Shown in pieces: positions 10,957 through 61,810 of a stretch of DNA of 64,000 nt (position 1 is the first letter of the stretch; every line of letters starts with the position of its first letter). The notes beneath the pieces were generated by a model. It was not told where the DNA came from and did not search any database. It was given only the letters and a program-made list of their open reading frames with translations. This stretch comes from Escherichia phage 235Ecol030PP. The DNA is taken from the sequence record PP355091.1; one strand, written 5' to 3'. A program made the translations under genes and the position numbers.

Positions 10957-11559
10957 TTATAGATTAAATCCTTCAAAATCAAGAGTATAGATAGTATATG
11001 TTGAATACTTTTTGTACTCATATCTATCTGCAATTCTAAATACACTTCCAGCTGGTATCATTACTTCTTGTTCATCTGAAACTAATTCCATATTACGATA
11101 ACGATGGCTATCCGGAAACTTAAAGTTTGGATTGTATTCTTTACAGCGTAGAGCTTTTATAGCATACTCCTGGAAATTGAATACCATAGGAGCTTTGAAT
11201 TCAAAAATAACTTGTGTGTTATACTCTAAACCAGAAGCAAAATGTAGAGCTATATTTTTATCATATGAAGCTGATACTACTTTATCAAATGTAATAATAT
11301 CAATTCCTTGATTTAACACTTGCTTAGTCTCGACTGGAACACCTCTCCAAAGAGGTTTATCGTTTGGTTCCAAACGAGATTTGATTATTTCATTTAACCA
11401 AGTATGGTCATCTGGTTTGTTGGTAATACAATGAATTAAAAGTTCAATTTCAGATAAATTAAACCCTTCAGAAAGTAATTCTTCACGAATAGAAGCACGC
11501 ACCGATGCATCCATTGATTTTATTTTAAAATCTTTTAGTTGCATTACTGAGTATTTCAT
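10957..11559 (-). CDS. modA: ADP-ribosyltransferase (R-S-ExE type), 200 aa
   Basis: ART triad: LWRG, SASYD, DEQEVMIP; size 200 aa matches ModA; which of the pair is modA vs modB is by size only. Confidence 0.6.
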   Translation of the reverse strand: MKYSVMQLKDFKIKSMDASVRASIREELLSEGFNLSEIELLIHCITNKPDDHTWLNEIIKSRLEPNDKPLWRGVPVETKQVLNQGIDIITFDKVVSASYDKNIALHFASGLEYNTQVIFEFKAPMVFNFQEYAIKALRCKEYNPNFKFPDSHRYRNMELVSDEQEVMIPAGSVFRIADRYEYKKYSTYTIYTLDFEGFNL

Positions 11560-12179
11560 TCAACTACCTCAATATCATAAACTTTAAATGTTCCAAATGA
11601 ATCGTGTAATTTTTCTTTTGAAATAGAAGTTATTTTATACTTTCCAATTGGAATCATCCATTCTTGTTCACGCACAATCATCATTAAGTTATCAGTACGC
11701 TCTGAATCTAGCCCATCAGTATCTTCATACGTGTACTTAAACTCAGTATTAGGAGAAGAAAGTATAATATCGCTGATATGGTCAGAATAATTAAAAGCTT
11801 TATCAGTTTTTAAGCGAAGTATTATTTTAGTAAAATATTCAGCGTAAGAAAAAGAACATGCTGTGAGCAAACTAGTAGTAAATGAATCTACTCTATTCGT
11901 TGAAAACACTTCTCCAACTTGTAAATCTTTAATAAGTTCTTCTGTTGATTTTGATATACCACGATATAACTGATAAGGTGATTTAGTTAAATGCTTTTTA
12001 ATGATTTTATTCAATTGCCGATGAAGAGCTTCATTCTTTTTGGCTTCCATACATTGCCAAAGAACAGACTGCTCAAAATCAGTAAATTTTTCACAGACCT
12101 TTTTATACATATCATATTGAAAATCAACGCTTTCAGCTTTTATAGATAACTGTTCAACATCTGCAAGATTAATAATCAT
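11556..12179 (-). CDS. modB: ADP-ribosyltransferase paralog, 207 aa
   Basis: ART triad: LYRG, FSTNR, REQEWMIP; paralog of the adjacent gene. Confidence 0.6.
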   Translation of the reverse strand: MIINLADVEQLSIKAESVDFQYDMYKKVCEKFTDFEQSVLWQCMEAKKNEALHRQLNKIIKKHLTKSPYQLYRGISKSTEELIKDLQVGEVFSTNRVDSFTTSLLTACSFSYAEYFTKIILRLKTDKAFNYSDHISDIILSSPNTEFKYTYEDTDGLDSERTDNLMMIVREQEWMIPIGKYKITSISKEKLHDSFGTFKVYDIEVVE

Positions 12180-59174: not shown

Positions 59175-59356
59175 AAGGAATTTATATAATCAATGAGTTC
59201 TTGTTCTTTATTATCAAATTCTTTGGAAAGTTCTTCATATTCATTTGCGCTAAAAGGACCGCATTCATTACAAACTTTTTCCAATTCACTATTTTTATCC
59301 ATAATTTCGTGGATAAGAGAAAAGAGTTTGTCTTTTTGTTCTTTGCTTAGGCTCAT
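59171..59356 (-). CDS. small helical protein, 61 aa (family member)
   Basis: MSLSKEQKDKLFSLIHEI... pattern. Confidence 0.5.
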   Translation of the reverse strand: MSLSKEQKDKLFSLIHEIMDKNSELEKVCNECGPFSANEYEELSKEFDNKEQELIDYINSL

Positions 59357-59522
59357 ATATTAATTTCCAGAAGTTTTAAAATAATTCGCTTTTGCTTAAA
59401 TATTTCCACAGTTAAATGATCAGTATCTTTTTGACCAATTCCAATGGCAAAACCTTTATTAACAGCGAGTTCAATTAAATTATCAAGTTCACGTAACACT
59501 TCATATTGTAACTCAGAACTAT

Positions 59523-59735
59523 TCATTTTGGTTTACCTTCTTTAACGAAATCAGGATAAGGATAAAATCCTGAATAAAATCCTTCACCTTTATGATTGAT
59601 GCATCCTTTATTAGAACAATAGCACCAATAATCGAAATCACAAGCCATTTCATCGTTGCATAAAGCAAAAACAACCGGCCACTTACACTTTTCACAGTGG
59701 GCATTTTTAAGAATACTAGTTTGGCTCATAACCAT
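59523..59735 (-). CDS. Cys-rich small protein, 70 aa
   Basis: multiple CxxC-like pairs. Confidence 0.45.
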   Translation of the reverse strand: MVMSQTSILKNAHCEKCKWPVVFALCNDEMACDFDYWCYCSNKGCINHKGEGFYSGFYPYPDFVKEGKPK

Positions 59736-59953
59736 GTCACCTTTAAGCAGTATTCTTCTACATGTTGTTTACGACCTTTCTTATCAATAAAGGTATATTC
59801 AACGAATGTTCCAATGTAGTCTTTATCTACATCATGTGGACTATTAATTGGACATTTAGTACGGCAAATGCGTTCCCATTGACGAATAATTACTGCTTTG
59901 TTTTTAGGATCAAACGGATGTGGATAATGTATATTCATAATAATGGTTCCCAA
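59726..59953 (-). CDS. hypothetical protein, 75 aa
   Basis: ORF. Confidence 0.45.
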   Translation of the reverse strand: MGTIIMNIHYPHPFDPKNKAVIIRQWERICRTKCPINSPHDVDKDYIGTFVEYTFIDKKGRKQHVEEYCLKVTWL

Positions 59954-60402
59954 TCAACAATCACAATTTCTAATTTAGAGGAATATGCATCTAAAATCCC
60001 CTCAATAATATCCCAGTTCCCTTTACCTATGCCTGCACCAATCCTAGGCATATAGATTGTAGGTTTAATTAGTTTATTTTCACCAAACTCATTTAATTCT
60101 AACATACAATTCATTAAAGCGGAATACTCAAAATTTGGCCCTGGCTGAAATTGAGTATAAAGGTTGAAGCAATACGCTTTATGAGTCCTAAAGTATTTTT
60201 CATAAACTGAGTAAGAACCGAGTTTAGTTACATCACCCCATTCAGTCTGTAATTTATCAGCTTCCAAAATTTTAGGGAAAGCTTTGGTTAATTGACCCGC
60301 TACGCCTGAACCCATAGTATGAAAACAATTGCATCCATGCGCAATATTTTTACCTTCAGCGAAAAGGGCGACAATATCGCCCTTGATATATTTTACAATC
60401 AT
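59935..60402 (-). CDS. macro-domain protein (ADP-ribose binding/hydrolase-like), 155 aa
   Basis: N..H...GSGVAG and GAGIGKG glycine-rich loops typical of macro domains. Confidence 0.55.
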   Translation of the reverse strand: MIVKYIKGDIVALFAEGKNIAHGCNCFHTMGSGVAGQLTKAFPKILEADKLQTEWGDVTKLGSYSVYEKYFRTHKAYCFNLYTQFQPGPNFEYSALMNCMLELNEFGENKLIKPTIYMPRIGAGIGKGNWDIIEGILDAYSSKLEIVIVDWEPLL

Positions 60403-60746
60403 CTAGTACTCAATCCTCGATTATAAGAATCTACCAAACGGTCAACCATTGAATGACAAGCGGCTTTATCTTTCTCCTCCGCAACTGAACATTCTAAAGT
60501 ATTCCACTTTTTAGCATATCGTTTTAACAATGTATAGTTTTTGTATCTGCTTGATTTATCCCTTTCTCCGTCTTTATATGCATATATTAATTTCTGTGCA
60601 AATTCAGCTTGGCATGCTTTATTTTTCCCACAATAATCTGCCGCAGTGCGGTTTACATATTCTCTAATTTCAGTATATGATGTATCTGCTGACGCAGAAG
60701 CAGAAAATGAAATTAATCCTATACATAAAACTAAAATTTTAGTCAT
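60399..60746 (-). CDS. secreted protein with signal peptide, 115 aa
   Basis: signal peptide MTKILVLCIGLISFSASASA. Confidence 0.55.
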   Translation of the reverse strand: MTKILVLCIGLISFSASASADTSYTEIREYVNRTAADYCGKNKACQAEFAQKLIYAYKDGERDKSSRYKNYTLLKRYAKKWNTLECSVAEEKDKAACHSMVDRLVDSYNRGLSTR

Positions 60747-61284
60747 TTACTATTTCCAAAAGTTTATTATTTTTAAGGTAATTAGCCTTTTCTAGGACTT
60801 CAGAAGCATATTTAGAACCAGCTTTAACATTCCATCCCGAATTATAAGAGGATATTGCTTTTCTTATATCGCCCTTATGTATATTTAACCAATAAGAAAG
60901 TTCAATGTACGCCCAGGAAGCTGAATTGGATCGTTTATTCAACATTCTTTTTATTTCAGCATCGGTCATATTATAACCAAGTTCCTTAACTCTTGCTCGC
61001 ATAGTAGGCAAATAATTTTGGAACATTCCGTAGGCGTGATGCTTTGGTTTAGATTTTAAATTAACTCCGCCAGAGCTTTCTTGCCATAAAATGGCTGCCA
61101 TTATATGACCTAATCCGCTCTTGTGGATATTTTTGTGTGTTTTATATTTTCCATCCTTAGAAAATTGTTCCCCGAATTGATACGCGTAACGCATGTTATC
61201 GAGTTGGACATTACTGAAAGTATGCTCGGAGCTATGTGCCATCATTGAAATGGCCAATAGACCAGCGAGTAGTGCTTTTCTCAT
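60739..61284 (-). CDS. secreted lytic transglycosylase-like protein, 181 aa
   Basis: signal peptide; SLT-like ...WQESSGG... and YNSG motifs. Confidence 0.55.
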   Translation of the reverse strand: MRKALLAGLLAISMMAHSSEHTFSNVQLDNMRYAYQFGEQFSKDGKYKTHKNIHKSGLGHIMAAILWQESSGGVNLKSKPKHHAYGMFQNYLPTMRARVKELGYNMTDAEIKRMLNKRSNSASWAYIELSYWLNIHKGDIRKAISSYNSGWNVKAGSKYASEVLEKANYLKNNKLLEIVND

Positions 61285-61780: not shown

Positions 61781-61810
61781 ATTATACCACAGTCAAGAGG
61801 AAAAGTAAAC
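61781..61810 (-). promoter_or_regulatory. T4-type early promoter upstream of regB
   Basis: GTTTAC-18nt-TGGTATAAT. Confidence 0.7.

Follow-up and report, generated by a model that had tools for sequence, protein, structure and literature searches.

The gene nearest to the one described here is known from genetics in phage T4. In a T4 transposon library on a DarTG2-expressing host, one gene alone, tk.4, came out as significant; its clean knockout made T4 sensitive to DarTG2, and it was renamed adfM (HIDEN-SEQ preprint, Nov 2025, bioRxiv 10.1101/2025.11.20.689424). The predicted structure of T4 Tk.4 resembles the DarG macrodomain, and the authors inferred that enzymatic removal of ADP-ribose from DNA by the protein 'seems likely' (bioRxiv 10.1101/2025.11.20.689424). 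This key genetic result comes from a preprint and was obtained on T4 itself; in the literature that we searched, we found no published biochemistry on T4 Tk.4. The name AdfM was also given, independently, to gp104 of phage PhiKZ, which takes DarT2-made ADP-ribose off an oligonucleotide in vitro and protects cells against the toxicity of DarT2, with activity lowered by the N23A mutation (Cell Rep 2026, PMC13309987).

Three further groups of macrodomains bear on the comparison: the lysine-type enzymes DarG and TARG1, the glutamine-type proteins SCO6735 and BT1257, and the phage enzyme Adpp. On DarT-made thymidine-ADP-ribose, SCO6735 is a faster hydrolase than DarG or TARG1, and it protects cells from the toxin; its Q85A and Q85E variants are inactive, N27S is almost inactive, and the authors proposed that the glutamine positions the distal ribose and that a backbone-held water acts (PMC9411070). 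Catalytically dead forms of SCO6735 (Q85A), DarG (K80A), and TARG1 (K84A) were also tested on DarT in vitro, and dead SCO6735 inhibited the toxin efficiently and most strongly of the three (PMC9411070). Adpp, encoded in the NARP1-AP operon, dephosphorylates ADPR-1''-phosphate to ADP-ribose, as followed by LC-MS; this product lets Adps and Namat rebuild NAD+ once the RES-domain defence aRES has attacked (bioRxiv 10.64898/2026.01.28.702374).

The DNA analysed here (the window, a single stretch of 64 kb) comes from a T-even phage (Tequatrovirus), and the 2.8 kb round the ORF under study are 98% identical to the T-even phages RB14, RB18, and T2. The product of this ORF is as long as T4 Tk.4 (NP_049723) and matches it at 154/155 residues; the sole difference, A139T, lies in the C-terminal helix, remote from the loops. 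Genes in RB14 and T4 run in the order tk, tk.1, tk.2, (two small ORFs, in RB14), tk.3, tk.4, vs, vs.1, regB, and the ORF is placed between vs and tk.3, in synteny with both genomes. Sequence and position identify it as the T4 tk.4 ortholog; the T4 gene was recently given the name adfM, for anti-DarT factor Macrodomain. The features of the gene and its surroundings are as follows.

59935..60402, minus strand: tk.4/adfM coding sequence, 155 aa, single macrodomain, ATG start
60399..60402, minus strand: ATGA overlap of the vs stop codon with the tk.4 start codon, read from the sequence
59935..59938, minus strand: ATGA overlap of the tk.4 stop codon with the tk.3 start codon, from the sequence and the tk.3 coordinates annotated in RB14
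61781..61809, minus strand: best sigma-70-like promoter match, just upstream of regB (TTTACT-17-TATAAT, extended TG; 10/12 in a consensus scan)

The gene thus sits in a tightly packed minus-strand run and is probably translationally coupled, with the vs/tk.4 ATGA overlap suggesting coupling within one transcript. Because promoter-like sites in the region occur at chance level (20 sigma-70-like sites found against 16.7 expected, a total not above chance), we only infer that the site at 61781..61809 might be an early promoter for the regB-vs.1-vs-tk.4 run, plausibly for regB to tk. Early expression of tk.4 is probable. A terminator-like hairpin inside tk.4, on the antisense strand, was set aside as most likely due to chance, with the counts of that scan again at chance level. 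A preprint on T2 infection lists tk.4 in its phage proteome and reports RIL-seq contacts between tk.4 mRNA and the host sRNA ArcZ; in an arcZ mutant, the level of the protein stays the same (bioRxiv 10.64898/2026.06.19.733364). The label that this preprint gives tk.4, 'putative thymidine kinase', is a mis-annotation that goes back to the name of the gene. Because of the two ATGA overlaps, the Pfam match and the homologues in phage records described below, and the proteome listing, tk.4 is a real gene and not a chance ORF.

Several neighbours have features of their own. The two small ORFs between tk.2 and tk.3 (59353..59526, minus strand, 57 aa; 59523..59735, minus strand, 70 aa) are missing in T4 and are annotated in RB14 as homologues of RB32ORF110c and RB32ORF111c; the 70-aa product has many cysteines (C..C...C...C.C..C) and may be a small zinc-binding protein. 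Both vs (60399..60746, minus strand) and vs.1 (60739..61284, minus strand) encode signal-peptide-like hydrophobic N-termini (MTKILVLCIGLISFSASASA... and MRKALLAGLLAISMMAHSS..., respectively), which is unexpected for Vs, whose annotated role is to modify valyl-tRNA synthetase, a cytoplasmic enzyme. In the HIDEN-SEQ study, vs was the most strongly depleted gene in minimal medium (bioRxiv 10.1101/2025.11.20.689424).

The first-pass annotation of this DNA had read the 155-aa ORF as a macrodomain-like protein from two glycine-rich segments, HTMGSGVAG and RIGAGIGKG, both of which occur exactly in the translation (residues 28-36 and 120-128). The assignment is borne out at several levels. Tk.4 matches the Pfam Macro family PF01661 with 27.7 bits, against a curated gathering score of 22, over residues 22-132 (profile positions 2-113 of 118). 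An AlphaFold2 model built with 57 homologues (mean pLDDT 95.1, pTM 0.90) has the three-layer alpha/beta/alpha macro fold. When this model was compared with the PDB by Foldseek, the macrodomains of TARG1, Poa1p, BT1257, and DarG led the matches (E 1e-9 to 7e-7), with human TARG1/OARD1 and yeast Poa1p at the top (E 1.3e-9 to 9e-8). Searching PDB sequences with the Tk.4 family profile recovered BT1257 (1e-18), SCO6735 (9e-15), TARG1 (2e-14), Poa1p (4e-14), and M. tuberculosis DarG (5e-13). A non-macro fold or missing ADP-ribose-contacting residues had been named as what would speak against the assignment; the predicted fold is macro, and both loops and the conserved N25 are present. Tk.4 is, under the classification in PMC9411070, a free-standing 155-aa macrodomain of the ALC1-like class, together with TARG1, DarG, and SCO6735. 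The A1pp/macro domain of tk.4 orthologues has been in the literature since 2006 (PMC1524935), and the T4 RefSeq record notes that tk.4 'contains A1pp phosphatase motif'.

By tblastn, Tk.4 homologues occur in 2751 of 50,697 phage records, with Escherichia, Klebsiella, Salmonella, Pseudomonas, Vibrio, Acinetobacter, and Aeromonas among the hosts. Some homologues carry C-terminal extensions: p025 of Salmonella phage FelixO1 (1495-2280 of its locus, L004) is 261 aa long, with ~110 extra residues, and a Kuttervirus homologue (Salmonella phage kage, L008 1429-2034) is 201 aa long with an acidic tail.

To place the active site, we aligned 118 family members (the window protein and 117 database homologues) with reference sequences by MAFFT. 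Three segments were compared.

60298..60339, minus strand: loop 1, residues 22-35 (H-G-C-N-C-F-H-T-M-G-S-G-V-A), including H22 and the conserved Asn N25
60151..60165, minus strand: residues 80-84 (N-L-Y-T-Q), ending in Q84, which stands in the column of the catalytic Lys (K84 in TARG1, K80 in DarG)
60013..60048, minus strand: loop 2, residues 119-130 (P-R-I-G-A-G-I-G-K-G-N-W), the glycine-rich, diphosphate-binding loop

Q84 and N25 are each present in 118/118 family members and H22 in 113/118; G33, A35, P119, and G122 do not vary in the family, and G124 and I121 hardly vary. The conserved elements G31-x-G33, G122-x-G124, and N25 align with their equivalents in TARG1, DarG, and SCO6735, as do P119, G122, G124, I121, and W130 of loop 2, except that DarG has Leu at I121. 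The H22/N25 segment aligns with H24/V25/C26/N27 of SCO6735 and with the corresponding Asn of DarG. The Q84 column holds Lys in TARG1 (K84) and DarG (K80) and Gln in SCO6735 (Q85) and BT1257, a placement given alike by MAFFT, by HMMER (family profile against TARG1), and by hhalign against DarG-like sequences (probability 98.8%, E 7e-17). The column of the second TARG1 catalytic residue, D125, holds Gly or Ala in the family and Gly in Tk.4 itself. The N-x-Y-[T/G]-Q motif is kept in distant homologues from FelixO1, Pakpunavirus, Vibrio phage Ceto, Kuttervirus, Acinetobacter phage Acj9, and Vequintavirus. Two other positions are conserved in the family: D49, invariant in the 57-sequence alignment and present in 117/118 of the larger set, where DarG, SCO6735, and BT1257 have Tyr and TARG1 a gap, and Y82, present in 118/118, where DarG, SCO6735, and BT1257 have Ile or Pro. 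As judged from these alignments, Tk.4 is an ALC1-like macrodomain of the glutamine type whose loop is short, as in DarG and TARG1, and Q84 is probably its key residue.

Tk.4 has the Gln, Asn, and His of SCO6735, with Q84, N25, and H22 of Tk.4 aligning with Q85, N27, and H24. Overall identity to SCO6735 and BT1257 is only about 24-29%, however, and these two come from bacterial genomes (those of Streptomyces coelicolor and Bacteroides thetaiotaomicron, respectively), Tk.4 from a phage. Both bacterial proteins also have an insertion of 5-6 residues just after the Gln, where comparison with the family profile gives Tk.4 a short loop; the mobile loop of SCO6735 is five residues longer than that of DarG or TARG1 and is said to be characteristic of its subclass (PMC9411070). 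Finally, the DNA-positioning K34 of SCO6735 is replaced by S32 in Tk.4 (family consensus Ala), and K89 falls in the loop segment that is missing from Tk.4.

The lysine-type enzymes differ from Tk.4 as well. TARG1/OARD1 has the fold and glycine loops in common with Tk.4, but its catalytic dyad K84/D125 is replaced by Gln and Gly. DarG of Thermus aquaticus and M. tuberculosis has a second, C-terminal, DarT-binding domain and is encoded beside darT, neither of which is seen in Tk.4 and its annotated neighbours, and both DarG and PhiKZ gp104 have their catalytic Lys within F-P-T-K, where Tk.4 has Gln. We considered whether Tk.4 belongs to the DarG antitoxins proper and rejected this assignment, keeping DarG as a functional analogy: the NCBIfam equivalog NF048014 scored 30.4 bits against a cut-off of 250, the match covered the macro half alone (positions 2-147 of 338), and the 155-aa Tk.4 has neither the second domain, nor the catalytic Lys (K80 in T. 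aquaticus) in F-P-T-K, nor an annotated darT neighbour. The annotated neighbours of tk.4 are the phage genes vs, vs.1, regB, tk.3, and tk, with no darT among the annotations. Membership in the subfamily of PhiKZ gp104 was likewise rejected, with a BLASTP alignment of only 23 residues and gp104 being of the lysine type; on these comparisons, two different macrodomain subfamilies now share the name AdfM.

The best explanation, which we regard as likely, is that the window encodes a tk.4/adfM ortholog whose product is a Gln-type macrodomain that undoes DarT2 thymidine ADP-ribosylation on phage DNA. In a DarTG2 host, the DarT2 toxin ADP-ribosylates thymidines in single-stranded phage DNA and blocks replication; in the proposed scheme, Tk.4 would bind the ADP-ribose via its two glycine-rich loops and hydrolyse the thymidine-ribose bond, restoring the DNA. 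The chemistry would probably be other than the lysine mechanism of DarG and TARG1 and more likely glutamine-dependent as in SCO6735, with N25 holding Q84 in place and Q84 positioning the distal ribose. That a T4-type Tk.4 itself removes ADP-ribose from DNA is suggested by the T4 genetics together with class-wide precedent. For this window, the near-identity to T4 Tk.4 (154/155 residues) and the shared gene order tk.3-tk.4-vs-vs.1-regB argue for the DNA-hydrolase function; the lack of equivalents to the longer mobile loop, K34, and K89 of SCO6735 argues against it, as does the nature of the closest biochemically characterised relative that we found, which is no DNA hydrolase.

That relative is Adpp. 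The Adpp of Vibrio phage Gary (KNV71_gp137) aligns with the window protein at 35% identity (E 2e-23), both proteins fall in PHROG 335, and by sequence comparison Adpp is nearer to Tk.4 than SCO6735 or DarG. It has the same size as Tk.4 and the same H-x-C-N-C and N-x-Y-x-Q motifs. Tk.4 could therefore be mainly or additionally an ADPR-1''-phosphate phosphatase, like Adpp and Poa1p, that acts on the product of a RES-type NAD+ phosphorylase (aRES). The relationship to Adpp speaks for such a function, but Adpp is encoded between Adps and Namat, has a small-molecule substrate, and works by feeding ADP-ribose to these two partners, whereas Tk.4 has no NARP1 neighbours and its reported phenotype, the only genetic one reported for T4 tk.4, is under DarTG2. 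We found no homologue of Adps or Namat within the 64-kb window (best tblastn E 0.37) and no T2/T4-type phage among the sampled Namat hits; an Adpp-like role here would therefore be one without the partner enzymes. An association of tk.4 with NARP1 was accordingly rejected, the flanking genes being vs and tk.3. Poa1p has the fold, the glycine loops, and H-x-C-N-C in common with Tk.4 but carries Ser, not Gln, at the Q84 position. Taken with these points, we consider a phosphatase function of Tk.4 possible but rather unlikely.

Other members of the wider family do lie inside or beside NAD+-reconstitution genes, namely distant Tk.4 homologues (31-35% identity) in Ceto, Gary, and PaYy-2. In Ceto (L007 635-3405) and Gary (L010 1629-4659), the order is an Adps-like 'ribose-phosphate pyrophosphokinase', the macro gene, and a Namat-like phosphoribosyltransferase, annotated in Ceto as 'nicotinate phosphoribosyltransferase'; this arrangement is that of the published NARP1-AP operon. 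In Pseudomonas phage PaYy-2 (L006 1-1980), the macro gene lies two genes downstream of a phosphoribosyltransferase gene.

A dual-purpose enzyme would join the two activities, with Tk.4 as a Gln-type macrodomain that takes DarT2-made ADP-ribose off DNA thymidine and whose second substrate is ADPR-1''-phosphate, which it dephosphorylates, or another ADP-ribose conjugate. We put this forward tentatively, as a proposal with a modest chance of being right. If true, the large PHROG 335 family, with T4 AdfM and Vibrio phage Adpp among its members, would represent a single promiscuous scaffold for anti-defence, recruited by different phages against different NAD+-based defences, and lysine-free chemistry would be the trait that its members share.

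Protection against DarT2 might in principle come from binding. Protection without catalysis is conceivable, since SCO6735 remains an inhibitor of DarT in vitro when catalytically dead, and Tk.4 could act mainly by binding or blocking DarT2 or by shielding the modified DNA rather than by hydrolysis. We regard this as improbable: Tk.4 is a single domain of 155 aa with no equivalent of the C-terminal DarT-binding domain of DarG, and about 118 diverse homologues all keep Q84, N25, and the two glycine loops unchanged, which points to a conserved active site and not to a toxin-specific interface.

As to what the macrodomain is for, the first-pass annotation had proposed a counter-defence role, DarTG-type systems among the targets, a link to the phage's own ADP-ribosyltransferases, and degradation of ADP-ribose-derived signals. 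The macrodomain and the action against DarTG stand, the latter through the published genetics on the T4 orthologue (bioRxiv 10.1101/2025.11.20.689424); the other two proposals do not. The window does encode the two ADP-ribosyltransferases that had been noted, modA (10957..11559, minus strand) and modB (11556..12179, minus strand), whose products are 98% and 97% identical to T4 ModA and ModB, and their presence alongside a macrodomain raises the idea that Tk.4 erases or reads ADP-ribosylation by Alt, ModA, and ModB. In T4, arginine is the residue that the Alt and Mod enzymes modify; enzymes of the ARH/DraG type take ADP-ribose off arginine, and macrodomains are not known to cleave this linkage. 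Moreover, tk.4 lies about 48 kb from modA and modB, and the macro family is far wider than the ModB family, with 2751 phage records against 1010, the latter mostly from enterobacteria phages; it extends to Pseudomonas and Vibrio phages, outside the main groups of the ModB search. With no adjacency and this difference in range, we rejected the link as unsupported and hold it to be very improbable. Even less probable is a Tk.4 that breaks down or sequesters immune signals derived from ADP-ribose, for example the cyclic ADPR isomers of Thoeris, a possibility raised by the same annotation: the similarity of ThsA to Tk.4 is well below that of the TARG1/DarG/Poa1p group, and no such tk.4 phenotype was found in the literature searched.

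The gene tk.4/adfM and its anti-DarTG2 role are already known, and the window adds no new system. What the present comparison adds is the apparent replacement of the DarG/TARG1 lysine by Q84 and the position of Adpp as the closest characterised relative found. 'Phosphatase' labels, and the use of the name AdfM for two macrodomain subfamilies, can mislead annotation in a family that is very common, at about 5% of phage records. For the biology of these phages, tk.4/adfM would show phages copying the 'antitoxin half' of a bacterial toxin-antitoxin system so as to reverse the ADP-ribosylation of DNA.
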